Of a DNA stretch of 42,226 bases, positions 7,919-42,226 are shown piece after piece (the stretch's first letter is position 1; every line of letters starts with the position of its first letter). The translations under genes were made by a program, and so were the position numbers. Under the pieces are notes generated by a model. The model searched no databases. It worked only from the letters and a program-made list of their open reading frames with translations, and was not told the DNA's origin. Origin of the DNA: Desulfobacteraceae bacterium. GTDB taxonomy: Bacteria; Desulfobacterota; Desulfobacteria; Desulfobacterales; JAJDOA01. Location: the NCBI GenBank assembly GCA_022340405.1, contig JAJDOA010000273.1, positions 1-42,226 on the forward strand. The letters run 5' to 3'.

Positions 7919-8713
7919 TCAGGCGTCCCGATTCCCGTCAAAGGATGGTTTTCGTTTATCCAGAAATGCGCCGGTGCCCTCCTTGGCGTCCTCGCTGGCC
8001 ATGCAAAGGGCGAAAGCATCGACTTCCACCGCGCAACCGGTGGCGAGATCCGCATCGGTTCCGGTGTTGACGGCATGCTTGGCCGCACGCAAGGAAACCT
8101 TCCCTTTTTGGGCGATGGATCGGGCCGTCTTTGCCGTTTCGGCAAGCAGTGAATCGGAGGCCAGAACGCGATTGACCAGCCCGATCTCTCTGGCTTCGGA
8201 AGCCGGAATCATCTTTCCCGTAAAGATGAGTTCCTTGGCCATGTTTTTCCCAATCAGTCGGGGCAGCCTCTGGGTTCCCCCGAAGCCGGGTATGATGCCC
8301 AGATTGATTTCCGGAAGGCCGAACTGGGCGTTTTCCGAAGCGTAGACGAAGTCGCAGGCCAGAGCGATTTCACACCCGCCGCCGAGTGCATAGCCGTTGA
8401 CCGCGGCGATCACCGGTATGGGAAGGTCCTGGAGGGCGCCGATGGCCTGGTGGCCGAGCCGGGAAAATTTCCTTGCCTGCAACGGGTTGAAGGTGGCCAG
8501 TTCGGTGATGTCGGCCCCTGCGACGAAAGCCTTGTCTCCGGCCCCGGTGAGAACGAGTACGCGTATGGATTCGTCGTCTTCGATGTCGCGCAGGGCTTGG
8601 GAAAACTCCGCGAGCAGGGCCGCGTTGAGGGCATTGAGGGCCTTGGGACGGTGAAAGGTCAGGGTGGCGACCCCTTGGTCCATGTCGAAAACGAGATGTT
8701 CAAAGTCCTTCAT
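7919..8713 (-). CDS. Enoyl-CoA hydratase/isomerase (crotonase family)
   Basis: ATLTFHRPKALNALN, VLVLTGAGDKAFVAGADI, AAVNGYALGGGCEIALACD and GLPEINLGIIPGFGGTQRL are crotonase-fold signature segments. Confidence 0.9.
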   Translation of the reverse strand: MKDFEHLVFDMDQGVATLTFHRPKALNALNAALLAEFSQALRDIEDDESIRVLVLTGAGDKAFVAGADITELATFNPLQARKFSRLGHQAIGALQDLPIPVIAAVNGYALGGGCEIALACDFVYASENAQFGLPEINLGIIPGFGGTQRLPRLIGKNMAKELIFTGKMIPASEAREIGLVNRVLASDSLLAETAKTARSIAQKGKVSLRAAKHAVNTGTDADLATGCAVEVDAFALCMASEDAKEGTGAFLDKRKPSFDGNRDA

Positions 8714-21543: not shown

Positions 21544-23709
21544 TCACCTCTCCGACCGGGTGACTCTCCGGATGAAATGGTGAATCGCCTGGTGCACCGT
21601 ATGGGCTTCCTCACCCAGCAAAATACCGTGTCGCTGAAAATTGACGAACAGTAGAGATTTGTTTTCCGATTCCAGCCGGTCGAACACCTTTCGGGCGCCG
21701 CCGGGTTGCACCACGGGATCCCTGTCGGATTGGATTACTAGGGCGGGGACATGGATGGACGGCAGGACTTCGGCGACGGCGTCCATGAGCCTTTCCAACT
21801 CATGGATGCCGCTGACGGGATTGCGCGTGTAGTTGATGTGCGGGTTTTCCGGTTCATTGGCCACAAACTCCAGCATGGCTCCCCTCCACCGCACCCTTTC
21901 CATGAGTCGATTCCAGGTGTCCACCGCCGGTGCAAAGCGGGCGGAAAAATCCTGCAGACGCAGCGGCGGCGCCACTGCGAACACACCGGAGAGCCCCTTG
22001 ACTCTAGCAGCGAGCTCCAGAGCCAGCCCTGCTCCCGTCGAAAACCCGCCCACCACCACTTCCTTGCAGGTCCCGGAGATCACGGCATAGGCACGATTGA
22101 CCGAATCGATCCAGTCATTGTGTGTGCGCAAGGCCAAATCCTCCGGCGAGGTACCGTGGCCCCGCAACCGCGGGACGTACACCCAAAGACCCCGGGCTCC
22201 CAGGTAGTCCGCCAGGTCTTTTAGTTCGTAAGGGGCGGCCATGTATCCGTGGACGAGAACCACGCCGATCCGGTCCCGGCCTCCGCGCAGAAAATAGGGA
22301 CGGCCGACGCGCTTTGCCCTGCTTTGCCCGTCTCGATGGTAGGCGGCATAGTCGTCATCGAAGCATTTCAGGTCCTGCCGGAGCAGTTTCCAGGCGATCC
22401 TGCGTCGAAGCCAGAAGTCCGGGATCCAGGCCAGGTGCCGTATGGCCCGCTCCAGTGCCTGCAGGGGCTCCACTTCGTTTGCGATCACGGCCACCGGGTT
22501 TTCCATCCGCGCCCGGTCGAAATGGAAAAGGCCGTCGAACTTGGCGTTGTTCCGCACCCAGTCCGACCCCTCCCGCGCAGCGATCCGGGTTTGCAGGGCC
22601 AGGCGCTCGAAATCCCTGTACTTGCCGTATCGGTCGTCGACGATGAGATGCAGCTGGTCCGTGCGCAGGCTGTCGTGGCAGAATACCCCCAAACGCTCCA
22701 AATCCATGACTGCGGCGGCGTACACCTTTCTACGAAACGCCATTTCATCGATGCGGTTCAGCGGCATTTTTTTGAAGACGACGGCGAACAGGTGATCGTG
22801 GTTCACGGTGGTCATCCGATAGATATCCGTCATGTACCGCCGCATCAATAGCAGCGCTTCCTTCCGCATCCGCGGAAGAGAGGAGAGCGCGTCGTTGAAG
22901 TCGATTCGGCTTTTCCGGGTGATATCGGCGCGGATGGTCCGGTGACGCAGATGGGACACCACCGGAATCGGTTTGCCGAAGCGGATGTCCATATCCACGC
23001 CGCTGAGCAGCATCGTTCCTTCGGTCATGATCTCGTCGATGGCGCGGTCGGGGATATCTTCGACCAATATCGATGCCAATTGGCTGAGGACGTTCTCCCG
23101 GGCTCGAATGGGGTAGTAGGTGATGTTCACGGGAACGATATGAGTGGACCGCCCGGAGAGAATTTCGAGAGATTCGATCTGAAAACGGTGCTGCAGGCGC
23201 TCGGCCTCCTCCGGCATCTCCTTCCATAAGTGAAGCAGCCGCTGGCGATAGAATTCGGTTCGTATGGCCAGCGTCGCAGCCCCTGTGTGCGGGGGGTGTT
23301 TGCCGCCGGCGTAGGAGACCATGAAGCGACCGTTTTCCAGGATCTTCTTGTTTTTCACCATGCGGCCTTCGGGAAAAATGATCCAGTGGGCCTCTCCGGT
23401 GAGCAGGGTTTTTACGATGAGCCGATCCCTGTCCGGATTCTGCGTACTGAGGGCACCGACCTGCTCCAGGAAAGCGCCGAAAGCGCCGACGAAAAGACCG
23501 GCATCGGCCAATGACCAGACCTGGTGTTGCGTCAGATGGTGAATGTGATAGGGGAGCAGCAGGGTTTCGATGCGCGTGAAATGGTTGACGACGAAGACGA
23601 TGGAACCCTCCGGTATGTTCTCCGATCCGTGGATTTGGATGTTGGCCCTGGACAGGCCCGATAGGGTTTTGATGGCAAGACCTGTGGTGCGATAGGCAAA
23701 CGAGTTCAT
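21544..23709 (-). CDS. Fusion protein: N-terminal PlsC/LPLAT-type glycerolipid acyltransferase, ~250-aa middle region, C-terminal alpha/beta-hydrolase (esterase/lysophospholipase-like)
   Basis: The N-terminus has VVNHFTRIE (an HX4D/E-type motif) and IIFPEGRM (FPEG block). The C-terminus has VVLVHGYMAAP, the nucleophile elbow GGFSTGAG (GxSxG), and late DRDPVV and RHGIL residues consistent with a Ser-Asp-His triad. Confidence 0.85.
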   Translation of the reverse strand: MNSFAYRTTGLAIKTLSGLSRANIQIHGSENIPEGSIVFVVNHFTRIETLLLPYHIHHLTQHQVWSLADAGLFVGAFGAFLEQVGALSTQNPDRDRLIVKTLLTGEAHWIIFPEGRMVKNKKILENGRFMVSYAGGKHPPHTGAATLAIRTEFYRQRLLHLWKEMPEEAERLQHRFQIESLEILSGRSTHIVPVNITYYPIRARENVLSQLASILVEDIPDRAIDEIMTEGTMLLSGVDMDIRFGKPIPVVSHLRHRTIRADITRKSRIDFNDALSSLPRMRKEALLLMRRYMTDIYRMTTVNHDHLFAVVFKKMPLNRIDEMAFRRKVYAAAVMDLERLGVFCHDSLRTDQLHLIVDDRYGKYRDFERLALQTRIAAREGSDWVRNNAKFDGLFHFDRARMENPVAVIANEVEPLQALERAIRHLAWIPDFWLRRRIAWKLLRQDLKCFDDDYAAYHRDGQSRAKRVGRPYFLRGGRDRIGVVLVHGYMAAPYELKDLADYLGARGLWVYVPRLRGHGTSPEDLALRTHNDWIDSVNRAYAVISGTCKEVVVGGFSTGAGLALELAARVKGLSGVFAVAPPLRLQDFSARFAPAVDTWNRLMERVRWRGAMLEFVANEPENPHINYTRNPVSGIHELERLMDAVAEVLPSIHVPALVIQSDRDPVVQPGGARKVFDRLESENKSLLFVNFQRHGILLGEEAHTVHQAIHHFIRRVTRSER

Positions 23710-30002: not shown

Positions 30003-31124
30003 ATGAAAAGTATCTATGCGGAGCGGACGGACCGCACAACAGAAAAACTGCCCCAACACGACATTGACACACTGATGGTCGTCGTAGGGGAAAACCGACG
30101 TTATCTCAGCGGGTTCACGGGGGAGGACACCCAGTTCGACGAAACCGCAGGGGCCCTGTTCATCACACGCGATCGCCGCATCCTGGCCACGGATACCCGT
30201 TATGCCCTTCAGGCCGAGACGGAGGCGCCGGAGTACGAGATCCGCTGCTACCGAGACAGCCTGAGCCGTGAAACGCCGGAAATCCTTCGGGATCTGGGAA
30301 CGCAACGCCTGGGATACGAAAGCGTCCGCCTGTCGTGTTGGATGCTCGATCGGCTCCAAAAAGCGTTGGCCGAGGCAGCTTGGGAGACGGAGCTGCGCGG
30401 GGTCGAGGACCTGGTGGAGTCCCAGCGGGCCGTTAAAACGGAGGAGGAAATCCGCAGCACACGCCAAGCCCTCGATATCGCCGAACAGGCTTTCTGCGAG
30501 ACGGCCGCGGGCCTGCGGGAGGGCATGACGGAACGCCAACTGGCCTGGGAGATGGAGCGCCGGATGCGGGAAAAAGGCGCGGATTCCCTTTCCTTTCCCG
30601 TCATCGTCGCCGCCGGGGCCAATAGCGCGCTGCCCCATGCCGTACCGGGAGATCGCCCCGTGCGCAGAGGCGAACCGATTCTTTTCGACTGGGGCGCCCG
30701 GTGGGGCGGTTACTGTTCGGACACGTCGAGAACCCTCGTTTTGGGAGAACCCGACGACACCTTCGTATCCGTTTTCCAAACCGTCCGGAAAGCCCAGCGC
30801 GAGGCGATCGCCGCCATTCGTCCCGGAGCGAGCACCAGGGCCGTGGACGCCGTGGCCCGGGACTGCATCGGCGATGCCGGCTTTGCCGGGAAATTCGGCC
30901 ACGGCCTCGGTCACGGAACCGGCCTGGCCATCCACGAAGCCCCCCGACTGAGCCCTCTTCGGGAAACGACATTGGCGGCCGGAATGGTGGTTACCGTGGA
31001 GCCCGGCGTTTATCTACCCGATTGGGGCGGTATCCGGCTCGAAAACCAGGTGGTCGTGAGACCCGACGGCGCCGAGATTCTCACCCGACTGCCGGTGGAC
31101 TGGAACCCCGGGGCTTTCCGATGA
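30003..31124 (+). CDS. pepP: Xaa-Pro aminopeptidase / M24B family metallopeptidase
   Basis: Creatinase-like N-terminal domain, then PSFPVIVAAGANSALPHA, DWGARWGGYCSDTSRT, HGLGHGTGLAIHE, VEPGVY and IRLEN metal-ligand blocks. ATG 30003 was chosen inside ORF 29823..31124. Confidence 0.85.
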   Translation: MKSIYAERTDRTTEKLPQHDIDTLMVVVGENRRYLSGFTGEDTQFDETAGALFITRDRRILATDTRYALQAETEAPEYEIRCYRDSLSRETPEILRDLGTQRLGYESVRLSCWMLDRLQKALAEAAWETELRGVEDLVESQRAVKTEEEIRSTRQALDIAEQAFCETAAGLREGMTERQLAWEMERRMREKGADSLSFPVIVAAGANSALPHAVPGDRPVRRGEPILFDWGARWGGYCSDTSRTLVLGEPDDTFVSVFQTVRKAQREAIAAIRPGASTRAVDAVARDCIGDAGFAGKFGHGLGHGTGLAIHEAPRLSPLRETTLAAGMVVTVEPGVYLPDWGGIRLENQVVVRPDGAEILTRLPVDWNPGAFR

Positions 31125-32062
31125 CGGAAGGCAAGCCCGATACACCCGCAGTGCCGGCGCCGGGGGAGACCGGGATCCATCCGCTGCTGGATCGCTACCT
31201 CGACTACCTGCTGGTGGAAAAAGGTCTTTCCCGCCGGACCCTGGAAGCCTACAGCCGAGACCTGTCCCGCTTTGCCACTTTCCTGCTCGATCAAGCGGTC
31301 GACCGCCCCACAGAGCAGGACACCGCGATTCTTCTCGCTTATTTGATCCATCTTCGAAAATCCGGACTCTCCGGACGGTCCCGGGCCCGGCATCTGGTGT
31401 CCATCCGCGGTTTCTACCGGTTTCTGTGCAGGGAGGGCCTTCTGAATTCCGACCCCTCGTTGCGCGTGGATCTGCCCAAGACCACACAGAAGCTGCCGGA
31501 GGTGTTGAGTGTCCGTGAAGTGGAACGGCTGCTGCGCGCACCTGCCGAGGACACCCCAACGGGGCTTCGGGATGGCGCCATGATCGAGATGATGTATGCT
31601 GCGGGATTGCGTGTCAGCGAGCTGGTGGGCATGAAGCGCCACGATGTCAATCTCGAGGCCGGATTCGTGCGCGTGCTGGGAAAAGGCGCCAAAGAGCGCA
31701 TCGTACCCATCGGACGCTACGCCCGCGACAGGATTGCATCCTACATCGAAAACGCACGGCCCGTTTTGCTGAAAAGCCGAACGAGCCCCTACCTCTTTGT
31801 CGGGCGCGGAGCAAAGGCCATGAGCCGTCAGGGATTTTGGAAGCTGCTGCGCAGATACGGCCTGAAAGCAGGACTCAGAAGGCCCGTTTCTCCGCACGCT
31901 CTCCGGCATTCCTTTGCCAGCCACCTGCTGGAGGGGGGGGCGGATCTGAGGGCGGTTCAGGCCATGTTGGGACACGCGGACATTTCCACGACACAGATCT
32001 ACACGCATGTGGCGCGGGAGCGCCTGCAACTTGTGCACAAAAAGTACCATCCCAGGGGGTGA
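31121..32062 (+). CDS. xerD: Site-specific tyrosine recombinase XerD
   Basis: LDRYLDYLLVEKGLSRRTLEAYSRDL at the N-terminus, ARDRIMIEMMYAAGLRVSEL-like box I, and HALRHSFASHLLEGGADLRAVQAMLGHADISTTQIYTHV with the catalytic Tyr. The ATG overlaps the pepP stop (ATGA). Confidence 0.85.
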   Translation: MTEGKPDTPAVPAPGETGIHPLLDRYLDYLLVEKGLSRRTLEAYSRDLSRFATFLLDQAVDRPTEQDTAILLAYLIHLRKSGLSGRSRARHLVSIRGFYRFLCREGLLNSDPSLRVDLPKTTQKLPEVLSVREVERLLRAPAEDTPTGLRDGAMIEMMYAAGLRVSELVGMKRHDVNLEAGFVRVLGKGAKERIVPIGRYARDRIASYIENARPVLLKSRTSPYLFVGRGAKAMSRQGFWKLLRRYGLKAGLRRPVSPHALRHSFASHLLEGGADLRAVQAMLGHADISTTQIYTHVARERLQLVHKKYHPRG

Positions 32063-32083: not shown

Positions 32084-32112
32084 TTGACAGCCAGCGGCGC
32101 TTCAGGTAGAAA
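32084..32112 (+). promoter_or_regulatory. Putative sigma70-type promoter for the pfaD-etfBA operon (TTGACA-17 nt-TAGAAA)
   Basis: TTGACAgccagcggcgcttcaggTAGAAA, 89 nt upstream of the pfaD ATG, directly after the xerD stop. Confidence 0.35.
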
Positions 32113-32200
32113 TACGGTTTTTTTGCAGGCTCGCATCGACGGAAAGAGGCAATGGAGGGCGGCCTCTTCAAAGAGACATCACGGGCAAGAGTGATATTCC

Positions 32201-33850
32201 ATGGAATCGAAAACCAACCCCGCCGGCTGGTGGATTCCGCCGGCCGACGTCGCGCCGGACCGGGCCAACCGGGTCGATTCCATGCGTCACGTGCTCTACC
32301 GTGTCGGCAAACCGCTGTTCGTAGCGGTGTCGGAAGGGGAAACGGTCGTTGCCTGCGACGGCACGGCCCTGATGGGTCGCGGAGATCGCCCTTCCGAAAG
32401 CGCCCTGCCCCTGAAAGCCTGGATTCCCCCGCTGGATCCGGCGGACCTGGGAGACCCTGTCTTTCGGCGCCGCTATGGCCTGCGATTTCCTTATGTCGCA
32501 GGCGCCATGGCCAACGGCATCACGTCCGTGGAGATGGTTCGGTCCATGGGAGAAGCCGGGATGATCGGTTTTTTCGGGGCCGCCGGACTTTCACTGGATC
32601 GGATCGAATCAGCCATCGACGACCTGAAGGCAAAGCTTGGGGATCGGCCTTACGGATGCAACCTGATCCACAGTCCCTACGATCCGGCGCTGGAGGAGGC
32701 GACGGTGGACCTGTACCTGCGGCGCGGCATCCGGAGGGTGAGCGCTTCGGCGTACCTGGACCTCACACCTTCGCTGGTGCGGTACCGGCTTTCAGGAATC
32801 CATCGCGATCCGAAGGGACGAGTGGTATGCCCCAATCAGGTGCTGGCGAAGGTGTCCCGTGTCGAGGTCGCCCGGAAATTCCTGTCCCCGGCGCCGGCCA
32901 AATGGATTGCCCATCTCTTGGATCGGGGCCTCCTTGCGGCCGAGCAGGCGGCCCTGGCCGAGGGGGTTCCCATGGCCGACGACATGACGGCGGAGGCGGA
33001 TTCGGGTGGGCACACCGATAACCGTCCCGCTCTGGCACTGCTGCCTGTCATGACCCGTTTGCGGGACGAAATGACGGACCGGTATCAATACGGCGAACCC
33101 GTCTGCGTAGGCCTTGCCGGAGGGATTGCGACGCCGGAGTCCACGGCGGCCGCCTTTGCCATGGGGGCCGCTTATGTACTCACCGGTTCCATTAACCAAT
33201 CATGCGTGGAAGCCGGAACCTCAGATGCGGTGCGACGGATGCTCGCCGAGGCGGAACAGGCCGATGTGGTCATGGCACCGGCGGCCGACATGTTCGAAAT
33301 GGGCGTAAAGGTCCAGGTGCTCAAACGCGGCACCCTGTTCGCCGTGCGAGCCGCCAAGCTCTACGATCTGTACCGCCGGTACGATAGCTGGGAGGCCGTC
33401 CCTGCATCCGAACGCGTTCGTCTGGAACGGGACTGCTTCCGTAAATCCTATGCGGAAGAGTGGGCGGATACCCGCCGGTTCTTTCTTCACCGGGATCCGA
33501 AACAGATCGACCGGGCCGAGCGGGATCCCCGCCACCAAATGGCCCTCGTGTTTCGTAGCTATCTGGGACAGTCTTCGAATTGGGCGGTGTCCGGCGATCC
33601 TCAGCGGAAAGTCGACTATCAGATCTGGTGCGGTCCGGCCATGGGCACGTTCAACGAATGGGTTCGGGGCTCCCTTTTGGAGCCTCCGGAAAACAGAACC
33701 GTGACGACGGTTGCCATGAACCTGCTGTGGGGCGCTGCCGTAATTACCCGCATCAACTGGCTGCGCCTCCAGCGAGTTGACCTTCCGCCGGAGGTTTGCC
33801 ACGTGCCGCCCCTTTCCACGGAGCAGATCCGCCACTATCTGGAGGAATGA
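32201..33850 (+). CDS. pfaD: PfaD-family enoyl reductase (FMN-dependent, 2-nitropropane-dioxygenase-like; PUFA/polyketide synthase ER subunit)
   Basis: FRRRYGLRFPYVAGAMANGITSVEMV, GMIGFFGAAGL, GCNLIHSP, TAEADSGGHTDNRPA, GLAGGIATPES and YQIWCGPAMGTFNEW match the PfaD family along the full 549 aa. Confidence 0.9.
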   Translation: MESKTNPAGWWIPPADVAPDRANRVDSMRHVLYRVGKPLFVAVSEGETVVACDGTALMGRGDRPSESALPLKAWIPPLDPADLGDPVFRRRYGLRFPYVAGAMANGITSVEMVRSMGEAGMIGFFGAAGLSLDRIESAIDDLKAKLGDRPYGCNLIHSPYDPALEEATVDLYLRRGIRRVSASAYLDLTPSLVRYRLSGIHRDPKGRVVCPNQVLAKVSRVEVARKFLSPAPAKWIAHLLDRGLLAAEQAALAEGVPMADDMTAEADSGGHTDNRPALALLPVMTRLRDEMTDRYQYGEPVCVGLAGGIATPESTAAAFAMGAAYVLTGSINQSCVEAGTSDAVRRMLAEAEQADVVMAPAADMFEMGVKVQVLKRGTLFAVRAAKLYDLYRRYDSWEAVPASERVRLERDCFRKSYAEEWADTRRFFLHRDPKQIDRAERDPRHQMALVFRSYLGQSSNWAVSGDPQRKVDYQIWCGPAMGTFNEWVRGSLLEPPENRTVTTVAMNLLWGAAVITRINWLRLQRVDLPPEVCHVPPLSTEQIRHYLEE

Positions 33851-33853
33851 TTC

Positions 33854-34723
33854 ATGCCCTTGAAGATCATTGTCACCGTCAAACAGGTGCCGGACACCCA
33901 CAACGTTTCCGGCGATGCCATGAAACCGGACGGCACCGTGAACCGCGCCGCCCTGCCGGCCATCTTCAACCCCGAAGACCTCAATGCCCTGGAGGAGGCG
34001 CTGCGCATCAAGGACACCCTCGGCGGCACCGTGACGGCCGTCACCATGGGGCCTCCCGGTGCTTCGGAGGTGTTGAGGGAATGTCTCTATCGCGGCGCGG
34101 ACGATGTCGTGCTTCTCTCCGATCGGCGTTTTGCGGGAGCCGACACCCTTGCCACCAGCTATACGCTTGCCTGTGCCATTCGAAAATTGGGGGATTTCGA
34201 CCTGATTCTTTGCGGGCGTCAGGCCATCGACGGCGATACCGCACAGGTGGGGCCCCAAATCGCCGAGAAACTCGGAATCAACCAGTTCACCTCGGTTTCG
34301 GAAGTCATCGATGTCTCAACCGACCACATCACCGTGCGCCGAACGATAGAGTCCGGTTTCGAGATTCTACGCTCCGGGTTGCCGGTGCTGCTCACCATCA
34401 CTTCGGACGCGAACGAGCCCCGGCCGCCCAGTGCCAAACGGGCCATGGCCTACAAGCGGATCGGGCGGCAGGCCTGCCAGGGCGATTTCGACGAGGCGTA
34501 CATCCAGCCGGGCGTCTGCGGCCCCTTGGATTTCATCCGTGAATGGAACGCCGATTCCATCGGGGCGGATCCGCAGCGATGTGGTTTGAGCGGTTCGCCC
34601 ACCAAGGTGAAAAAGGTCCAAAACGTCGTGCTCACGGCCTCCGACTCCCGGAAGGTTCCCAACACCGATGCGGATATCGCCAAACTGATACATGATCTCA
34701 TTGAAGAAAACATTCTCGGTTAG
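33854..34723 (+). CDS. etfB: Electron transfer flavoprotein beta subunit, clostridial/FixA-like type
   Basis: IIVTVKQVPDT, FNPEDLNALEEAL, MGPP and GRQAIDGDTAQVGPQIAE, where mitochondrial-type EtfB has DDDxNQTGQ, plus GLSGSPTKVKKV. The RBS GGAGGAA precedes the start, which lies 3 nt after the pfaD stop. Confidence 0.9.
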   Translation: MPLKIIVTVKQVPDTHNVSGDAMKPDGTVNRAALPAIFNPEDLNALEEALRIKDTLGGTVTAVTMGPPGASEVLRECLYRGADDVVLLSDRRFAGADTLATSYTLACAIRKLGDFDLILCGRQAIDGDTAQVGPQIAEKLGINQFTSVSEVIDVSTDHITVRRTIESGFEILRSGLPVLLTITSDANEPRPPSAKRAMAYKRIGRQACQGDFDEAYIQPGVCGPLDFIREWNADSIGADPQRCGLSGSPTKVKKVQNVVLTASDSRKVPNTDADIAKLIHDLIEENILG

Positions 34724-34732
34724 GAGAGCGTT

Positions 34733-35752
34733 ATGACGGAAGCCAAGAACGTCATGGTGTTCATCGAGGCGGACCGGGGCCGCGTCGCCGACGTCAGCCT
34801 CGAGCTGGTGTGCGAAGCCGGACGACTGGCCGAACGCCTTGGGGGAACCGTCGAGGCCGCCGCTATGGGATACGGCATGACCGAGGCCCTGGCGGATCTC
34901 GGACGGTATGGATGCCGCCGCGTCTACTACACGGAAGATCGGAGGCTGGAGCGCTTCGCCTCCGTACCCTATGCCAAGATAACGGCAGATATCATCCGCC
35001 GACGGACCCCGAAGGTGGTTCTTTTCGGTGCGAGCACCACCGGCCGGGACGTCGCACCCCGGGTGGCTTCGATCCTGCGCTGCGGCCTTACCGCGGACTG
35101 CACCGAATTGGATATCGGTGATTACCGCTTCAAGGACAGGCAATGGGAGGACGTCCTATTGCAGATCCGCCCCGCCTTCGGAGGGAATATCGTGGCCACC
35201 ATCGTGAGCCCCGAGAGCGTTCCCAGCATGGCCACGGTTCGGGAAGGGGTGATGCGGCTCATCGAATCCGATCCGGAAGCCCGGGCGGAGGTCTTGCGGG
35301 AAGCCGTCAGCCTGGGAGGGGATGACTTTCCCACCGAAATCATCGAGGTGATCGAGCAGGAGCGGTGCGTGGATCTGAAATCCGCACGAATCATCGTCGC
35401 CGCCGGAGTCGGTGCCAGCGATCCGGAATCGCTGAAGCTGGTGCGCCAACTGGCTCGACTGCTAGGCGGTGTGGTCGGAGCCTCTCGTCCGGTTGTGGAT
35501 GCCTGCGTGCTCCCCCGAGACCACCAGGTCGGACAGACCGGCACCACGGTGCGGCCCAATCTGTATGTCGCCTGCGGCATATCCGGACAGATCCAGCACC
35601 GGGCGGGAATGGCGGAGTCCAAGAGGATCATCGCCATCAACCGAGATCCGGACGCACCCATCTTCGACGTGGCCCACTACGGCATCGTCGGTGACGTGCG
35701 GGAAGTCATTCCGCGAATGATCAAAGCCTACAAGGTGCGGGGAACGCTGTGA
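34733..35752 (+). CDS. etfA: Electron transfer flavoprotein alpha subunit
   Basis: The C-terminal FAD-binding domain is IIVAAGVGA...GASRPVVDA...QVGQTGTTVRPNLYVACGISGQIQHRAGM...IIAINRDPDAPIF. The RBS is AGGAGAG. No N-terminal ferredoxin domain is present. Confidence 0.9.
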   Translation: MTEAKNVMVFIEADRGRVADVSLELVCEAGRLAERLGGTVEAAAMGYGMTEALADLGRYGCRRVYYTEDRRLERFASVPYAKITADIIRRRTPKVVLFGASTTGRDVAPRVASILRCGLTADCTELDIGDYRFKDRQWEDVLLQIRPAFGGNIVATIVSPESVPSMATVREGVMRLIESDPEARAEVLREAVSLGGDDFPTEIIEVIEQERCVDLKSARIIVAAGVGASDPESLKLVRQLARLLGGVVGASRPVVDACVLPRDHQVGQTGTTVRPNLYVACGISGQIQHRAGMAESKRIIAINRDPDAPIFDVAHYGIVGDVREVIPRMIKAYKVRGTL

Positions 35753-35785
35753 AGACCGTTGCCGGGGCGGTTGAACCTTACCGGC

Positions 35786-35811
35786 CCCCCAGCATCGGCG
35801 TGGGGGTTTTT
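35786..35811 (+). terminator. Terminator/attenuator-like hairpin between etfA and the acyl-CoA dehydrogenase gene
   Basis: CCCCCA-gcatcggcg-TGGGGG followed by TTTTT. It lies 34 nt after the etfA stop and 26 nt before the GTG start of the next gene. Confidence 0.4.
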
Positions 35812-35836
35812 GATCGCAAGCAAGGGGGAAATAACC

Positions 35837-37561
35837 GTGTCGAATTTTTTTCGTGACAATCCGGATATTCTCTTTCACATGGAGCACCTGGACTTTTCCA
35901 GGATCGTGGAACTCAAAGAGGACGGATTCGCCGACAGGGACCGATTTCCGGAAGCGCCGACGGACCTCGAAGATGCCGTGGACAACTACCGGCGCGTTCT
36001 GGACATTGTCGGCGATATCGCCGGCGGGTACGTGGCCCCCCGCGCCGAGCAGGTGGACCGCACCGGAGCCCGGTTTGCGGACGGTGTCGTCACCTATGCT
36101 CCCGGCACCCGGGAGGCCCTGGAACGTCTCCGACAGGCGGAGGTCATGGGGTTCACCCTGCCGCGGCGCTACGGCGGTCTCAACATGCCCAAAACGGTCT
36201 ACTCCATCGCCATCGAAATGATCTCCCGCGCCGACGCCTCGTTGATGAACATTTTCGGTCTGCAGGAAATCGCGGACACCATCAACAAGTTCGGATCGGA
36301 GGAACAAAAGCAGCGCTATCTGCCTCGCTTCTGCGAGGGTTCGGTGATGGGCTCCATGGCGCTGACCGAACCGGATGCCGGCAGCGACCTGCAGTCCGTG
36401 CGGTTGCGTTCGCACCAAGACGAGGACGGTATCTGGCACCTCAACGGCGTCAAGCGCTTCATCACCAACGGATGCGCGGACATCTCTCTGGTCATGGCCC
36501 GGTCGGAGGAGGGCACTACCGGTGGACGGGGCATTTCCCTTTTCATCTACGAGCGCGACGAACACATGCGGATTCGACGCATCGAGGAAAAGCTGGGAAT
36601 TCACGGCTCTCCGACCTGTGAGCTGCAGTTCGACGACGCCCCGGCCGAACTGCTGGGGCGACGGAAAATGGGGCTGGTCAAGTATACGATGTCGTTGATG
36701 AACGGCGCCCGTCTCGGCGTGGCGGCGCAAGCCGTGGGAATCGCCGAGGCGGCGTGCCGGGAAGCCACCCGATACGCCCGGGATCGAACCCAGTTCAAAA
36801 AGCCCATCCATCAGTTCGCCGCGGTTTACGAAATGCTCACCTGCATGCAGGTGGATATCGAGGCCGCCCGCACACTGCTGTATGAGACCTCCCGCATCGT
36901 CGACATCAAGGAGGGACTGGAGGAAAAGGCGGAGCGGCACCCCGAATCCGCCCGGGACATCGCCGGCGCTGTAAAGCGCTATACGAAATTGGCCGGGGTC
37001 CTCACCCCGATGGTCAAGGCCTACGCCAGCGAAGTCGCCAATCGCATCTGCTACGATGCGATCCAGGTCCATGCAGGGGTGGGCTTTACCTGCGACTTTC
37101 CCGTGGAACGCCTGTACCGGGATGTACGGATCACCAACATCTACGAGGGTACGACTCAGCTGCAGGTGGTGGCCGCCATCGGTACGGTACTCGGAGGCGG
37201 CATTTCCGAACTGCTCTCGGCATACGAAGAGGAATACGACTTCTCCCCGGTGTCCGAACGGTTCGCCCAAGCGGAGCAACTGCGAAGGGACCTGGAGGCG
37301 GCCGTTTCGGCGGTCAAGCAGGCCGGCGATCCCGCCTTTCAGGAATACCATTCACGGCGGATCGTGGAAACGGCCATCGATGCCGTCACCGGATACCGGT
37401 TGTGCATCGATGCCCTGTATTCGGAAAGAAAACGGAAAGTGGCGGCCCTTTTTCTCGCCCGGGCGGTCCACCGTTGCAGAACACGGCTGGAGATCATCCT
37501 CTCGGGCGACCGGAACTGTATGGATTTCCATCCGGAGATCATCGCCGGGTTCCCCGAATAG
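35837..37561 (+). CDS. Long-form acyl-CoA dehydrogenase (~574 aa; core ACAD fold plus ~190-aa C-terminal extension)
   Basis: MALTEPDAGSDL, WHLNGVKRFITNG, RRIEEKLGIHGSPTCEL, ARDRTQFKKPI and VHAGVGFTCDFPVERLYRDVRITNIYEGTTQLQ (catalytic Glu). GTG 35837 is preceded by GGGGGAAATAACC and lies downstream of the hairpin. The track start at 35759 is a TTG with no RBS. Confidence 0.85.
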   Translation: MSNFFRDNPDILFHMEHLDFSRIVELKEDGFADRDRFPEAPTDLEDAVDNYRRVLDIVGDIAGGYVAPRAEQVDRTGARFADGVVTYAPGTREALERLRQAEVMGFTLPRRYGGLNMPKTVYSIAIEMISRADASLMNIFGLQEIADTINKFGSEEQKQRYLPRFCEGSVMGSMALTEPDAGSDLQSVRLRSHQDEDGIWHLNGVKRFITNGCADISLVMARSEEGTTGGRGISLFIYERDEHMRIRRIEEKLGIHGSPTCELQFDDAPAELLGRRKMGLVKYTMSLMNGARLGVAAQAVGIAEAACREATRYARDRTQFKKPIHQFAAVYEMLTCMQVDIEAARTLLYETSRIVDIKEGLEEKAERHPESARDIAGAVKRYTKLAGVLTPMVKAYASEVANRICYDAIQVHAGVGFTCDFPVERLYRDVRITNIYEGTTQLQVVAAIGTVLGGGISELLSAYEEEYDFSPVSERFAQAEQLRRDLEAAVSAVKQAGDPAFQEYHSRRIVETAIDAVTGYRLCIDALYSERKRKVAALFLARAVHRCRTRLEIILSGDRNCMDFHPEIIAGFPE

Positions 37562-37623
37562 CAATGGGGCCCACAGCGGTTGACAAAATTCCGTTCCGTT
37601 TCATCATGCTTGTGGTTTGAACC

Positions 37624-37650
37624 GTAGGGGCGGGGTTTGTCCCCTCCCGT
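37624..37650. repeat. GC-rich REP-like hairpin at the convergent junction of the ACAD and HTH genes
   Basis: GTAGGGGCGGGGtttgtCCCCTCCCGT: GGGG/CCCC and GGG/CCC pair around a TTTGT loop with one mismatch. There is no U-tract on either strand. Confidence 0.3.
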
Positions 37651-37674
37651 GCTGCGAACCCATCGCACAAGAGC

Positions 37675-38301
37675 CTATCGCGCGGCGTCCTGTATGCGCC
37701 CCCCTTTGGGAGGCTGTTGAAGAAAGGAAAAGCAGGCGGGGGGCAGCCCCAGGAGGTCGACGAACTCCCAAAGCATGGCACCGAGGGGAAGCAGTCTCGC
37801 CCCATATCCTGCCAATTGCGAACGCGACCAGTATGGCCGATCCGGCAAGAGTTCTTCGCTCCACCGCTCTTCCAGCCGTTCCGATCCCCCTTTCCGTCCC
37901 AGTCGCGTGCGGCGTTCGATGGTTTGGATACGATAATGCATCCTTGAGGCATTTCCGGATTGAATCCACACCCGGATATCCACGGCTGCTTCTGCCGTTG
38001 GATTTTTCGAATCGCTTCGATCGAGGCCGGCCGGGTCGAATCGAAAACCGGATGCTTCCATCAACGGCCGCAGATCCTGCAAGACCTGACGGGTGTCGGG
38101 AATGGTGAAGCCGGCGGAGGAAACGAGATAGCCGGCCAAAAACAGCTGGAAGGCGTCGTCCGGGCTGTACTGACGGGCATAGCCGGACTGAAGCCCCCCC
38201 AGTGGATCGGGGGCAAGGAATTCCCTGGACCAGCGCTTCCATTTGGCCAGATTGACGCCAAAGGATTCGGACAACTGCCGGTTGGTGTAGTAGCGGATCA
38301 T
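37675..38301 (-). CDS. Hypothetical protein with MerR-like N-terminal helix-turn-helix (tentative) and uncharacterised C-terminal domain
   Basis: From ATG 38301 the protein reads MIRYYTNRQLSESFGVNLAKWKRWSREFLAPDP.....GYARQYSPDDAFQLFLA. This follows the MerR pattern of HTH, then G-Y-R-x-Y-s-x-x-D-l-x-x-l. The ORF extends to 38439, but that part lies in AT-rich, motif-laden DNA. Confidence 0.45.
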   Translation of the reverse strand: MIRYYTNRQLSESFGVNLAKWKRWSREFLAPDPLGGLQSGYARQYSPDDAFQLFLAGYLVSSAGFTIPDTRQVLQDLRPLMEASGFRFDPAGLDRSDSKNPTAEAAVDIRVWIQSGNASRMHYRIQTIERRTRLGRKGGSERLEERWSEELLPDRPYWSRSQLAGYGARLLPLGAMLWEFVDLLGLPPACFSFLQQPPKGGRIQDAAR

Positions 38302-38375
38302 TGCGGGGTACCTGCGGTGAAGAATACGGTGAAATGGAACAGCATTGCCAAATGCCGCATCATCATAATGATATC

Positions 38376-38515
38376 TTGTTATATCATATAAACAACCATT
38401 ACAAGAACAATCCTGAATGCGAAACCGATCGGAACGCACAATGAGCGGCCTTCTTTCCCAGTATCCTGGATTTCCGCTTCTAATATGATAAGTTGTTATA
38501 CCAGTCTATCATATA
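38376..38515. promoter_or_regulatory. Candidate operator cluster: 20-bp near-palindrome TTGTTATATCATATAAACAA plus repeated TTGTTATA and TATCATAT half-sites
   Basis: TATCATAT occurs at 38382-38389 and 38507-38514, and as its complement ATATGATA at 38483-38490. TTGTTATA occurs at 38376-38383 and 38493-38500. ATCATAATGAT lies at 38363-38373. All of this sits in a visibly AT-rich island inside GC-rich DNA. Confidence 0.4.
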
Positions 38516-38534
38516 GAAATCTGTTTCCATTCCC

Positions 38535-38563
38535 TTGAAAACCGCCGAATCCTAAGCTATAAG
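38535..38563 (+). promoter_or_regulatory. Putative sigma70-type promoter for the pfaA-like gene (TTGAAA-17 nt-TATAAG)
   Basis: TTGAAAaccgccgaatcctaagcTATAAG, 87 nt upstream of ATG 38650 and immediately downstream of the TATCATAT motif cluster. Confidence 0.4.
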
Positions 38564-38649
38564 TTAGATTTCGTTTCGAACCGAACACATCGTTCCATTC
38601 GGTCACTGCTGCAGGAAGGGCGCGAGGCCGGTCTGGAGTCGGTTTCATC

Positions 38650-41600
38650 ATGAAAAATTCCACCCAAAACGGATCCCCCGTCGCCGTCATCGGTATCGGT
38701 TGCTTTTTTCCGGGATCTCCCGGGCTAAAGCCGTTCTGGCAGTTGTTGTTCCGGGAAAGAGATGCCATCACGGATGTCCCGCCATCCCACTGGTCCCGGG
38801 AGGATTATTTCGACGAAGACCCGAAACGGCCGGATCATGTCTACTGCTCCAGGGGCGGTTTTCTATCTCCCGTGGCCTTCGATCCCTCCGAATACGGAAT
38901 TCCCCCCAGCAACCTCCAGGCCACGGACACTTCCCAATTGCTCGGTCTCGCCGCTGCCAAGGCGGCTCTGGAAGACGCCGGTTACGGGGATGATCGGGAT
39001 TTCGACAGGGACAGGACCAGCGTGGTGCTCGGCGTCACCGGCACACAGGAGCTGGTGATCCCTTTGGGGGCCCGTCTCGGGCATCCCATCTGGCGCAGAG
39101 CGCTGCACGAAGCGGGCGTGGCGCCCGAAACGGCGGAAACCGTGATCCAAGGCATTTCCGACGCTTACGTACCCTGGCAGGAAAACGCTTTTCCGGGCCT
39201 GCTGGGAAACGTCGTTGCGGGTCGGATCTGCAACCGACTCGACTTCGGCGGCACCAACTGCGTGGTCGACGCGGCCTGCGCCAGCTCCATGGGCGCGATT
39301 CATCTGGCGATGCTGGAACTGGAGACGGCACGCTCCAACATGGTGGTCACCGGTGGCGTTGACGCCATCAACGACATCTTCATGCACATGTGCTTTGCCA
39401 AGACGCAGATTCTATCCCCCACCGGGAATGCACGCCCATTTTCCAGGGATGCCGACGGGACGGTGCTGGGCGAAGGCATCGGCATATTGATCTTCAAGCG
39501 GCTGGCCGATGCCGAGCGCGACGGCGACCGGATATACGCCGTGATCCGGGGCATCGGGTCCGCCAGCGACGGTCGTTCCCAGAGCATCTATGCCCCCCGC
39601 GTTCAAGGGCAGACCAAAGCGCTGCGTCGTGCCTATGAAAAAGCCGGAGTGGATCCGGCCTCGGTGGGGCTGATCGAGGCCCACGGCACCGGAACCCGTG
39701 TCGGCGACGCCGTGGAATTCAGAGCTCTCCGTGACCATTTCGGAAAGGTTGCAGCCGGCGACAACCGGTGTGCCGTCGGGGCGGTCAAGTCCATGATCGG
39801 CCACACCAAGGCGGCTGCAGGCGCCGCCGGCCTGATCAAGGCCGTACTGGCCCTGCATCACAAGGTGCTGCCCCCCACCCTGAAAATATCCGAGCCCGAT
39901 CCAGGACTGGAACTGGAAGACAGTCCTTTCTACTTGAACACCCGTCTGCGCCCCTGGATGAACGACGGGCTCACGCCCCGCCGTGCCGGGGTGAGTGCTT
40001 TCGGTTTCGGCGGCAGCAACTACCATGTGGTGCTCGAGGAGTACCGACCGGAAAAATCGGAGATCTCCTGGGACGGTTCGGTGGAAATCCTCGCTTTTTC
40101 CGGAGCCAACCCGGAGCAGGTCCGGCAGCGGGTGCGTTCGTTTCAAAAAGACCTCCGGCAAATCGGCGACCTGGACGCCGCCGCCCACCAAGCCGGCGGG
40201 ACGCGCAAATCCTTCTCCCATCGGGATCCCTGCCGGCTGACACTGGTCGCTCCCGTCCGCGGCGACGTAGGGGATCTGCGCGACGACTGGCTCCGGAGAC
40301 TCGACGCCGCCCGGAAGCGGTTATCGGATGCACCGCCCCGGTCCGAGGATTCGGATGGAGAGGTTTTCCTCGCTCAAGGCGATGTGCCGGGCGGGCTGGC
40401 GTTTCTTTTCCCCGGCCAGGGCAGCCAGTACTTGTACATGGGCCGGGATGTCCTTTGCATGTTCCCCCAGGCAATGGAATGCCTCGCATGCGCCGACGAG
40501 ATCGCCGGAGGCGATGATCGGCTGTCGGACCGCATCTATCCGATACCGGCCTTCAAGCCGGAACACGCCTCCATGCAGGAAAACCGGCTGCGGGAGACGC
40601 AGACGGCACAGCCGGCCATCGGAGCCGTCAGCGCTGCCATGCTGGCGGTGCTGCATTATTTCGGCGTCGAACCCGACGCCGTCGCGGGCCACAGCTTCGG
40701 TGAACTCACGGCCCTTTACGCCGCGGGCCGCATATCGGAACGAGATTTTCACCGACTGGCGGCAACACGCGGCAGGATCATGCACGAAGCCGCAGGCGGT
40801 CGGCGCCAGGACGCCGGTGCCATGCTGGCAGTGAACGCTCCCCTGGAGCGCCTGGCATCCCTGGTCGAGAATGAGACGGAAACACTTGTCCTGGCCAATC
40901 GCAACAGCCCGAAGCAAGGTGTGTTTTCGGGATCTTCGGCGGCGGTATCCCGTCTGGAAGAGCGATGCCGGGAACAGGGCCTGCCGGCCGTCCGGCTGCC
41001 TGTGGCAGCGGCGTTTCACAGCCCCCTGCTCGGGTCCGCCGGTGCGGCCTTTGGCAAGGAACTGGGCAACGTCTCTTTCCGGGAGGGAAGCATCCCGGTT
41101 TTTGCCAACACCACCGCCGCGGTGTATCCAGATGATCCTTCGGAGGCAAAGCGCATCCTGGCCGAGCAGATCCGCCACCCGTTGGATTTCGTCGGAATGG
41201 TGGAAGCGCTTTATGCCGCAGGCTGCCGAACCTTTGTGGAGGTCGGCCCCGGAAGCGTCCTCAGCGGTCTGGTACGCCGCATTCTCGAAGGAAGACCGTC
41301 GGTTGCGGCCGCTCTGGACCCCGCGGCGGGAAAGCGTTCCGGGACAACCGACCTGGCTGCCGTGTTGTGCCGGCTGGCATCGATGGGGTACCCGATTCGG
41401 CTGGAACACTGGGAAAAACTTGCCGCAACGCCCAGGAAGCGAAGAATGAACATACCGCTGTCCGGCGCAAATTACCGCCCGGAGGGCAGTGCCGGGGAGA
41501 GCCGCCCATCCTCTTACGCTGCCGCTGCCGCCACTCCTCTCCGGAACACGGATCTGCAAAACCCGGTCATCGAAAAAAACCCGACGGTACCGGCTCCACC

Positions 41601-42226
41601 CAGGCCGGTTGCCGAAACCCGTACGATATCGAACGAAACCATGAAAGAGTCCCAACTACACCATTCGATCCCTTCACAGCCGACGGTTTCCGAATCCGTG
41701 TCGGATGCGATGTCCACGATCCAGGAAGGTCTTCGCTCTCTACAGACCCTCCAGCACCAGACGGCCGAAGCCCACCGGATGTTTTTGGAGAACCAGACCG
41801 AGATCAGCCGTAACATCCAGGCCCTGATGCAGCAGGCCGGAACCCTGGCCGGATGGTCCGCCTCACCGGAGGAGCGCTCTACGGCGCCTGCCCCCGAAAG
41901 ACCGGAAAGGCGGCGGCCTGCGCTCCAACCGGAAGGAATCCGACAGCCTGTCCCCGTCGCCGATGTACCGGTTGCAGCAGTCCCGGAGACACTGCCTCCA
42001 CCCGCTTCGCAACCGGGACAGACGCGAACCGCTGCACAAGAAGTGCCGCCGCCGCAACCGGAGACGCCGGCAAGCTCTTCCGTGCCGACGGCCCTGAAGG
42101 CGGTGGTCTCCGAGCTCACCGGGTATCCGGAGGAAATGCTCTCTGCCGACATGGATATCGAGGCCGACCTGGGCATCGACTCCATCAAGCGTGTGGAGAT
42201 CCTGTCCACCCTCGAGGAGCGCGTGC
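38650..42226 (+). CDS. pfaA: PfaA-like polyketide/PUFA-synthase subunit, 5' partial (KS - malonyl-CoA:ACP acyltransferase - Pro/Ala-rich linker - start of first ACP); continues beyond the window
   Basis: I translated this by hand; it is not in the ORF track because it has no stop in the window.
- KS: VAVIGIGCFFPG; VVDAACASS (Cys210, nt 39277-39279); EAHGTGT; KSMIGHTKAAAG.
- AT: AFLFPGQGSQY; GHSFGE (Ser682, nt 40693-40695); AAFHSPL.
- ACP: DLGIDSIKRVEILS (Ser1178, nt 42181-42183). Confidence 0.9.
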   Translation, partial: MKNSTQNGSPVAVIGIGCFFPGSPGLKPFWQLLFRERDAITDVPPSHWSREDYFDEDPKRPDHVYCSRGGFLSPVAFDPSEYGIPPSNLQATDTSQLLGLAAAKAALEDAGYGDDRDFDRDRTSVVLGVTGTQELVIPLGARLGHPIWRRALHEAGVAPETAETVIQGISDAYVPWQENAFPGLLGNVVAGRICNRLDFGGTNCVVDAACASSMGAIHLAMLELETARSNMVVTGGVDAINDIFMHMCFAKTQILSPTGNARPFSRDADGTVLGEGIGILIFKRLADAERDGDRIYAVIRGIGSASDGRSQSIYAPRVQGQTKALRRAYEKAGVDPASVGLIEAHGTGTRVGDAVEFRALRDHFGKVAAGDNRCAVGAVKSMIGHTKAAAGAAGLIKAVLALHHKVLPPTLKISEPDPGLELEDSPFYLNTRLRPWMNDGLTPRRAGVSAFGFGGSNYHVVLEEYRPEKSEISWDGSVEILAFSGANPEQVRQRVRSFQKDLRQIGDLDAAAHQAGGTRKSFSHRDPCRLTLVAPVRGDVGDLRDDWLRRLDAARKRLSDAPPRSEDSDGEVFLAQGDVPGGLAFLFPGQGSQYLYMGRDVLCMFPQAMECLACADEIAGGDDRLSDRIYPIPAFKPEHASMQENRLRETQTAQPAIGAVSAAMLAVLHYFGVEPDAVAGHSFGELTALYAAGRISERDFHRLAATRGRIMHEAAGGRRQDAGAMLAVNAPLERLASLVENETETLVLANRNSPKQGVFSGSSAAVSRLEERCREQGLPAVRLPVAAAFHSPLLGSAGAAFGKELGNVSFREGSIPVFANTTAAVYPDDPSEAKRILAEQIRHPLDFVGMVEALYAAGCRTFVEVGPGSVLSGLVRRILEGRPSVAAALDPAAGKRSGTTDLAAVLCRLASMGYPIRLEHWEKLAATPRKRRMNIPLSGANYRPEGSAGESRPSSYAAAAATPLRNTDLQNPVIEKNPTVPAPPRPVAETRTISNETMKESQLHHSIPSQPTVSESVSDAMSTIQEGLRSLQTLQHQTAEAHRMFLENQTEISRNIQALMQQAGTLAGWSASPEERSTAPAPERPERRRPALQPEGIRQPVPVADVPVAAVPETLPPPASQPGQTRTAAQEVPPPQPETPASSSVPTALKAVVSELTGYPEEMLSADMDIEADLGIDSIKRVEILSTLEERV

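Follow-up and report, generated by a model that had tools for sequence, protein, structure and literature searches.

We analysed a split pfa-type locus, that is, one related to the gene clusters of polyunsaturated fatty acid (PUFA) synthases, in which genes encoding an electron-transferring flavoprotein (Etf) and an acyl-CoA dehydrogenase (ACAD) stand between pfaD and a pfaA-like gene. It lies on a 42,226-bp contig of a metagenome-assembled genome (MAG) which the public records of the ACAD and the regulator label Desulfobacteraceae bacterium; this complete contig is the window referred to throughout. Genes were identified by scanning the list of open reading frames (ORFs) and their translations against Pfam and NCBIfam. 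The order found was pfaD, etfB, etfA, acd, a MerR-type regulator gene on the minus strand, an AT-rich spacer and a pfaA-like gene that is still open at the contig end. The features are listed below; related loci carry L numbers, and lengths are given in amino acids (aa).

30006..32062, plus strand: pepP (Creatinase_N/Peptidase_M24) and xerD (tyrosine recombinase), from Pfam on the gene calls of L001
32085..32113, plus strand: promoter-like site TTGACA-N17-TAGAAA upstream of pfaD, from direct reading of the sequence
32201..33850, plus strand: PfaD-family FMN-dependent trans-acting enoyl reductase (ER), 549 aa, from TIGR02814 and Pfam NMO and FabD_helical_ins
33854..34723, plus strand: EtfB, predicted bifurcating-type (group 2) small subunit, from Pfam ETF and PDB matches
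34733..35752, plus strand: EtfA, predicted bifurcating-type large subunit, 339 aa, without a ferredoxin domain, from Pfam ETF and ETF_alpha
35785..35811, plus strand: GC hairpin CCCCCC-N10-GGGGG followed by T5 in the etfA-acd gap, from the fold
35837..37561, plus strand: long-form ACAD, 574 aa, from Pfam Acyl-CoA_dh_N, Acyl-CoA_dh_M, Acyl-CoA_dh_1 and AcylCoA_dehyd_C (PF12186)
37675..38301, minus strand: MerR-type helix-turn-helix (HTH) regulator, 208 aa, from Pfam MerR_1, public annotation and homologue lengths
38302..38649, no strand: AT-rich divergent promoter/operator region, from GC content and repeats
38650..42226, plus strand: pfaA-like iterative type I synthase with ketosynthase (KS), malonyl-type acyltransferase (AT) and first acyl carrier protein (ACP), from the open frame and Pfam

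All elements listed in the original prediction, which was made from the sequence without database searches, exist at or close to the positions given there, and the Pfam and NCBIfam scans agree with its gene names (ER, etfB, etfA, ACAD, MerR-like, KS-AT-ACP). It was also correct that the ER and megasynthase genes are separated by 4.8 kb and that the locus is not a canonical pfaABCD cluster.

Since the source is a metagenome-assembled contig, we considered whether this order could be an artefact or a unique accident, i.e. a chimeric contig or a strain-specific rearrangement. The same order was found in three independently assembled contigs from other samples (L001–L003, of which L001 is a contig identical to the window, with gene calls and Pfam assignments), which excludes an assembly chimera. 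It was also found in the other loci in which the cassette is linked to pfaD, namely L019, L050, L087–L090, L167, L168, L173 and L174, and the composition is uniform across the locus junctions. Such an origin is thus scarcely conceivable. A longer contig was sought by exact-protein look-ups, and only shorter ones were found.

The pfaD–pfaA pair and its regulator

PfaD scored 646.3 bits against TIGR02814 (cut-off 449.25) and contains the NMO/FMN barrel with an inserted helical domain. It has more than 8000 homologues. With a 99%-identical cluster of the same organism set aside, identity to the closest is 60–64%, most of these being from Desulfobacterales MAGs. The pfaA-like frame is ended by the contig end at residue 1192, and its truncated product reached 980.4 bits against TIGR02813 (cut-off 1010.1). 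Pfam detected ketoacyl-synt, Ketoacyl-synt_C, KAsynt_C_assoc, Acyl_transf_1 and PP-binding, and the translation shows the KS Cys/His/His, the AT motifs GHSFG and AFHS (malonyl-type) and the ACP motif DSI. Tandem ACPs, a ketoreductase (KR) and a dehydratase-like domain (DH') are seen only in the full-length relatives of 2120–2246 aa, the window stopping before them; the L089 protein has the order KS-AT-ACPx3-KR-PS-DH.

In L004 (1.1 Mb) and L005 the order is pepP, xerD, pfaD, a gene for 189–195 aa on the minus strand without a Pfam match, a pfaA-like gene (2120–2139 aa, KS-AT-ACP-KR-PS-DH families) and a convergent DEAD-box helicase gene. The core conserved in relatives is pepP-xerD-pfaD-(MerR-type gene, minus strand)-pfaA, without pfaB or pfaC after it, and pepP-xerD-pfaD is kept in about 20 related loci at 50–65% identity. 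Both pepP and xerD are context for the Desulfobacterales pfa pair and lie outside the system. The promoter-like site in front of pfaD was not reported by a consensus promoter scan, whose criteria it fails; it is weakly supported and statistically unremarkable.

A species-level scan was performed with a PfaD alignment against one genome per GTDB species, and the 80 loci obtained were examined by tblastn with the window proteins. pfaA follows pfaD immediately in 45 loci, a homologue of the window's regulator stands between the two genes in 16, and 2 more have another short spacing, so that pfaD lies directly upstream of pfaA in 63 of the 72 loci with enough sequence. The remainder are 2 loci with pfaD followed by etfB (L019, L050), 7 with no pfaA within 1.7 kb of pfaD and 8 on contigs that are too short. 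The ER-first arrangement, which had been taken as unusual, is the majority order in this set and was described for the secondary-lipid Types I, J, K and L (PMC3098273). Type J is the Planctomyces limnophilus arrangement of pfaD [ER] followed by pfaA [KS-MAT-ACP3-KR], MAT standing for malonyl acyltransferase (PMC3098273). A Type J-like layout, with one pfaA behind pfaD and neither pfaB nor pfaC, is present in the relatives, and the window is consistent with it; the assignment is by layout, not by KS-domain phylogeny.

An ordinary PUFA synthase cluster, with pfaB, pfaC and pfaE beyond the contig end and a known PUFA or polyene as its product, would agree with the very strong scores of PfaA and PfaD against the omega-3 family models and with a window that ends in pfaA. 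The original prediction likewise expected a KS-chain length factor (CLF) protein, a FabA-type dehydratase (DH) and a phosphopantetheinyl transferase (PPTase) downstream; in relatives these are absent within 10 kb. By tblastn with the window PfaA, no second KS/AT-like gene was found within 10 kb downstream of pfaA in the regulator-type Desulfobacterales loci with enough sequence, while the same scan did find such matches downstream in loci of Planctomycetota, Acidobacteria and Geobacteraceae. In L089, pfaA is followed by two small opposite-strand ORFs without a Pfam match. PfaC consists of KS-CLF and two FabA-type DH domains, and the canonical cluster has the ER last; no such protein was found in the relatives, FabA-type DH domains having been searched in part of these loci. 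Neither PPTase nor PfaB turned up among those ORFs scanned in the 42-kb window, of which 38 kb lie upstream of pfaA, or in the flanks of L004, L005 and L089; both may be encoded elsewhere in the genome. We consider an ordinary PUFA cluster very unlikely.

The regulator gene runs towards the ACAD gene and away from pfaA. The HTH type and the minus strand had been predicted correctly, while the extent had to be revised: the true product has 208 aa, replacing an ORF of 254 aa, and equals P0241, which bears the NCBI name MerR family regulator. The Pfam MerR_1 match is weak (E 3e-5) and above the gathering score, and nearly all of the 1281 homologues are unnamed or hypothetical. In a confident AlphaFold model of the regulator (49 sequences; pLDDT 85.8, pTM 0.83), an N-terminal MerR-type HTH is predicted together with a beta-sheet C-terminal domain in place of the canonical long coiled coil. 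The sole significant PDB match of the model was CvkR (7xn2, E 9.6e-4).

The spacer between the regulator gene and pfaA has a GC content of 44.5%, compared with 59.4% for the window. TATCATAT occurs in it three times, against an expectation of 0.17 for the entire window, and both 38368-38386 and 38485-38503 carry the 19-nt direct repeat ATGATAnnTTGTTATAnCA, with a partial inverted copy at 38494-38512. When 26 related loci were searched with TTGTTATA(Y)-type patterns, 42 of 46 matches, a count inflated by overlapping pattern matches, fell within this spacer, which makes up 1.8% of the sequence. Usually two copies of the TTGTTATA box are present per spacer, and the box is conserved across Desulfobacterales (about 20 loci, e.g. 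L005, L019, L089). It is probably the operator of the regulator in a divergent promoter pair. No boxes of this type occur upstream of pfaD or etfB in the 26 loci. Shared regulation of the cassette and pfaA was considered and rejected, as operator-like motifs were searched upstream of pfaD and etfB and none were found. Judged by its sequence, the transcription unit of pfaD(-etfBA-acd) lacks the operator site of the regulator and pfaA.

In Shewanella and Colwellia, the gene immediately upstream of pfaA is an HTH-only pfaR (bioRxiv 10.1101/2020.01.28.924217). The name PfaR is carried by none of the 120 regulator homologues listed, and the link is a positional analogy only.

We propose that the pair represents, in Desulfobacterales, a Pfa-like synthase of two genes, of the 'secondary lipid' kind and Type J-like. 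It would consist of the trans-acting FMN enoyl reductase PfaD and an iterative megasynthase with the order KS-MAT-ACPn-KR-DH', and the paired TTGTTATA boxes of the AT-rich spacer are probably bound by the MerR-type regulator, which is encoded divergently from pfaA. Between them, PfaD and the PfaA-like protein would hold every activity of a fully reducing elongation cycle. As relatives have no KS-CLF/FabA-type DH protein after the pair, the likely product seems to be an acyl chain that is saturated or mostly so, and not a PUFA. Fixed beside housekeeping genes and equipped with its own regulator and operator, the pair may serve abundant marine sulfate reducers as a core fatty acid synthase (FAS). 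For D. autotrophicum, Shulse & Allen suggested that the Type S cluster might be the core FAS because fabA and fabZ are missing (PMC3098273); their idea concerned that cluster.

The etfB-etfA-acd cassette

To EtfB, five of five PDB matches at E<1e-20 were CarD, LctB, C. difficile EtfB, T. maritima EtfB and A. fermentans EtfB, which are the Etf small subunits of the CarCDE, Ldh-Etf, Bcd-Etf and EtfABCX complexes or of the A. fermentans Etf. The motif GRQAIDGDTAQVG in its beta-FAD region is identical to that of CarD and invariant across the cassette family. EtfA matched T. maritima EtfA, CarE, C. difficile EtfA, LctC and A. fermentans EtfA with 198–261 bits, and the human and Paracoccus ETF with only about 130 bits. 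By GRQAIDGDTAQVG and nearest similarity, EtfBA is classed as a bifurcating-type (group 2) Etf, unlike the AMP-binding ETFs. Relative to CarD, EtfB has an insertion of 25–35 residues at about residues 199–232 (window 34445-34550), before the C-terminal GLSGSPTKV; it was rejected as a family signature, as both its length and its sequence vary across the cassette family.

The cassette Etf is possibly capable of bifurcation, as far as its sequence indicates; a group-2-like Etf can also serve as a plain carrier, e.g. in Fusobacterium (PMC12630350). Among the neighbours of the 80 ACAD loci described below, no gene for an Etf:quinone or FeS oxidoreductase is found repeatedly beside the cassette. The substrate-specific Etf sets of D. 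multivorans (Desulfococcus) do carry such a partner (PMC5109826), and Desulfobacteraceae genomes contain 15–17 ACADs and up to 7 Etf sets (PMC2702500, PMC5109826).

The ACAD frame opens at 35759, and the likely GTG start at 35837 gives 574 aa, the same as in the public gene calls. The N, M and C domains of the ACAD superfamily score above the Pfam cut-offs, and the motif Y436-E437-G438-T439 is present and invariant with respect to L019; its Glu is presumably the catalytic base, as established for medium-chain acyl-CoA dehydrogenase and butyryl-CoA dehydrogenase (Bcd). The core was matched best by the unnamed bacterial ACAD entries 4n5f and 4m9a, with the butyryl-CoA dehydrogenases 5ol2_C, 4l1f and 1buc close behind. 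Matches to long-form enzymes, with N- and C-terminal extensions, were FadE5, the DmdC-like 6ijc, 3owa and 2z1q, and the model NF058590 (Bacillus FadE) scored 199 bits. No NCBIfam equivalog model reached its cut-off with EtfB, EtfA, the ACAD or the regulator.

The hairpin in the etfA-acd gap may act as a partial terminator or attenuator. Its region folds no better than shuffled sequence (z-score not significant), and the terminator scan left it unflagged because the loop exceeds 8 nt. The spacer after the ACAD gene likewise shows no advantage over shuffled sequence in its fold.

Metagenomes scanned with an ACAD alignment gave 80 loci. The gene immediately upstream of the ACAD gene is etfA in 73 of them, in the same order, with etfB present as well where the sequence allows; 6 of the 7 remaining loci have less than 700 nt upstream. 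The full order pepP-xerD-pfaD-etfB-etfA-acd-HTH-pfaA was found within this set only in L087–L090. The order pfaD-etfBA-acd recurs in two Desulfobacterales sub-clades, in about 10 distinct loci with 57–76% amino-acid identity, so that the pfaD-etfBA-acd-HTH-pfaA synteny is not a one-off. Among the species representatives with the regulator or the cassette, the cassette is present in 2 of 18 and missing from 16. The original prediction had named pfaD and pfaA homologues without adjacent etfBA/acd as the sign of a one-off juxtaposition; such relatives do prevail (16 species representatives against 2), yet the adjacency itself is recurrent.

The ACADs of four examined loci (L167, L168, L173, L174) are 71–73% identical to that of the window, and their cassettes are linked to pfaD. 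With ACADs 67–70% identical (L169, L170, L172), the cassette stands between a surA-like gene on the minus strand and tsaE-ybeY-7TMR-HD-phoH, and in L171 (68%) it has yet another context. The site between the surA-like peptidyl-prolyl isomerase gene and tsaE is a second conserved Desulfobacterales site of the cassette (L169:8097-11713, L170:6099-9749, L172:6099-9734). L172 and the cassette-less pfa locus L004 share a sample, which links them at the level of the sample. The cassette is thus neither universal in pfa loci nor specific to them.

For a tree of the cassette, EtfB, EtfA and ACAD were concatenated (neighbour-joining, 1177 columns, 200 bootstraps). Two Pfa-linked clades were obtained, the window with L168 (99%) and L019 with L087–L089 (100%), the latter sister to the unlinked L166 (84%). 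The surA-context clade (99%) and other unlinked cassettes fall between them, the deep nodes having 38–52% support. The PfaD neighbour-joining tree is star-like, with the window, L167 and L168 grouped in 5 of 100 bootstraps and L050, L019 and L087–L090 in 82. Because of this star-like tree and the weak deep nodes, gains and losses are not countable, and one ancient insertion with relocations is inseparable from two or three insertions. We rejected a recent horizontal transfer, as the GC and GC3 (GC at third codon positions) of the cassette match those of the neighbouring genes.

Between acd and the regulator gene, an unannotated gene for 250–300 aa is present in L168 (11776-14646) and L167 (11899-14454), which of all cassette-bearing relatives are the two closest. 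In both loci this gap also holds MotB/OmpA-like genes, a MotA/ExbB-like gene being called in L168 only. With Mot/Omp-type genes sitting there, the pfaD-regulator interval evidently tolerates unrelated insertions. In the Desulfobacteraceae pfa locus L016 (4766-6512), a distant etfB/etfA pair (26–32% identity) lies upstream of pepP and not after pfaD. L093 was considered as an instance of the same flank and rejected, since the tyrosine recombinase beside its etfB is only 25% identical to the window XerD.

Elsewhere the contig carries mostly housekeeping genes: maf, queH, mutS, amiC, a gene for a sigma-70-family sigma factor, mnmA, a miaB-like gene, ABC permeases, and pepP and xerD. The sole other beta-oxidation-type gene on it encodes a stand-alone enoyl-CoA hydratase (ECH_1; 7919-8713, minus strand) amid housekeeping genes. 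At 21544-23709 (minus strand), about 8.5 kb upstream of pfaD, lies a gene whose 721-aa product joins a PlsC-type acyltransferase to an alpha/beta hydrolase (Hydrolase_4, lysophospholipase-like) and is a candidate for lipid remodelling. A GAF-MshEN-T2SSE protein of 770 aa is encoded at 5212-7524 (minus strand); this ATPase of the type II/IV secretion type carries a GAF domain at its N-terminus besides an MshEN domain.

Relation of the cassette to the synthase and comparison with known systems

We lean towards the view that the locus holds two independent units which share one conserved neighbourhood, and find this somewhat probable. The two-gene, ER-first Pfa-like layout is a known, uncharacterised type, and the adjacency with the cassette is a lineage-restricted addition to it, recurrent and yet not integral to the synthase locus. 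Besides the synthase pair, the second unit would be an autonomous etfB-etfA-acd cassette, whose products would form, by homology, a soluble Bcd/EtfAB-like complex of the ACAD with its FAD and the Etf with alpha- and beta-FAD. This complex would interconvert acyl-CoA and trans-2-enoyl-CoA with NADH/NAD+ and ferredoxin, no membrane partner being encoded. The cassette would be one of the many Etf/ACAD sets of fatty-acid-oxidising sulfate reducers, and not a component of the synthase; in two Desulfobacterales sub-clades it would have inserted, or been retained, between pfaD and the regulator gene.

Several observations weigh against this view. The adjacency is kept in about 10 distinct loci, which come from different environments, and all four examined ACAD homologues with at least 71% identity are pfaD-linked. 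Only 3 nt separate the pfaD stop from the etfB start, and the etfB ribosome-binding site GGAGGA lies within the 3' end of pfaD, which implies one transcript; etfB-etfA-acd is probably co-transcribed with pfaD in this window. The window itself ends within pfaA, its own downstream genes lying beyond the contig end. In addition, when the neighbour families of the 80 ACAD loci were clustered and then checked with Pfam (the proteins of L158, L128, L109 and L112; the others are assigned by cluster membership), the cassette was found to follow or face an operon for type II fatty acid synthesis (FASII) in 7 metagenomic loci from other organisms:

L158:3539-11167: fabH-fabD-fabG-fabF-fabZ-etfB-etfA-acd, Pfam-checked, with no enoyl reductase gene between fabZ and etfB
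L128:1-9022 and L127:1-6277: ...fabZ-fabV(TER)-etfB-etfA-acd, L128 Pfam-checked
L109:346-11710 and L137:1-8200: TetR, adenine deaminase and STAS genes between the FASII operon and the cassette
L112:1820-11704: FASII operon divergent from the cassette, Pfam-checked
L103:2254-11722: FASII association by cluster membership only

Two landings beside FAS genes of different architecture are unlikely to be due to chance, and a link with acyl-chain synthesis or turnover therefore stays open. A literature search for a described link of Etf/ACAD with pfaD, or of Etf with FASII, found nothing relevant in the library that was searched.

The original prediction had proposed that the flavoproteins are functionally coupled to the synthase, so that the Etf/ACAD module would be an accessory of the Pfa-like synthase in these lineages. 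Such an accessory could catalyse alpha,beta (de)saturation of acyl thioesters, be they the synthase's product or its intermediates; it could provide primers or recycle them; or it could be a second, energy-conserving enoyl reductase beside PfaD. The pfaD-etfB-etfA-acd order in two clades, the spacing of pfaD and etfB, which resembles translational coupling, and the independent association of the cassette family with FASII operons all speak for it. ACADs acting on carrier proteins also exist: the prolyl-ACP dehydrogenase 4irn was among the PDB matches, and the MbtN and PigA models were among the NCBIfam matches. These ACP-dependent models, however, scored far below their cut-offs, whereas the best ACAD matches are CoA-dependent enzymes of the Bcd, FadE5 and DmdC types, and the ER activity is already supplied by PfaD. 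Furthermore, most relatives have the pfaD/pfaA pair without the cassette, the operator motif is not shared, and the Pfa-linked cassettes form no distinct subfamily, their nearest sequences standing in housekeeping contexts. Synteny within the clade is itself weak evidence of function, because pepP and xerD are equally conserved beside pfaD without a functional relation. None of the evidence gathered links the flavoproteins mechanistically to the synthase, and we regard the coupling as possible but doubtful.

A bolder proposal is that the cassette is a dedicated FAS partner in strict anaerobes, an Etf-dependent and possibly bifurcating enoyl-thioester reductase or acyl-thioester dehydrogenase, recruited at least twice (after pfaD and after fabZ/fabV). 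This appears rather improbable to us. If true, it would mean that lipid synthesis is coupled to ferredoxin reduction, or that there is a further class of enoyl reductase besides FabI, FabK, FabL and FabV. Alone, the insertion of the cassette is of modest interest; a bifurcating-type Etf/ACAD beside two FAS architectures is a lead as to whether acyl-chain reduction is coupled to ferredoxin in some anaerobes. If the link is only positional, the locus is a lineage-specific rearrangement of known parts.

Among known systems, the synthase pair comes closest in layout to Type J (also I, K and L; PMC3098273): the ER gene is first, a single PfaA-like protein has three ACPs (in relatives), no pfaB or pfaC is adjacent and the product is uncharacterised. 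It differs in the MerR-type gene and operator boxes between pfaD and pfaA; moreover, the Desulfobacterales pair is fixed beside pepP-xerD and in this lineage has the cassette after pfaD, and the two are likened by layout only. With the canonical pfaABCDE clusters of Shewanella, Photobacterium and Moritella, the locus shares the PfaA and PfaD family models, the PfaA order KS-MAT-ACPn-KR-DH' (in relatives) and, by position only, an HTH regulator gene next to pfaA (pfaR in Shewanella and Colwellia). In contrast to them, there is no PfaB, PfaC or PPTase near the loci of the relatives, and the ER is first and not last.

The regulator model resembles CvkR (7XN2), a MerR-type repressor of cyanobacterial CRISPR-associated transposons, in having an N-terminal MerR-type HTH and a compact non-canonical C-terminal domain. 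At 13% sequence identity, with TM-scores of 0.47/0.62 and an unrelated genomic role, this is a resemblance of fold only.

The cassette was compared with Bcd-EtfAB (C. difficile 5OL2, A. fermentans 4KPU/4L1F) and related flavin-based electron-bifurcating complexes (CarCDE 6FAH, Ldh-EtfAB 7QH2). EtfB and EtfA are far nearer to these than to non-bifurcating ETFs and share the GRQAIDGDTAQVG motif, the Bcds rank just behind two unnamed entries for the ACAD core, and no gene for a membrane Etf:quinone oxidoreductase lies beside the cassette. The differences are the order etfB-etfA-acd and the ACAD itself, which at 574 aa is of the long form and, like FadE5, YusJ and DmdC, has extensions at both the N- and the C-terminus (PF12186). 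It shares the length class and the AcylCoA_dehyd_C domain with the long-form ACADs mycobacterial FadE5 (6KSE and others), the YusJ-type FadE of B. anthracis and B. subtilis (3OWA) and the DmdC-like enzyme (6IJC), and is no orthologue of any of them because its scores lie far below the equivalog cut-offs. The FadE5, YusJ-type and DmdC-like enzymes work with respiratory (non-bifurcating) ETF.

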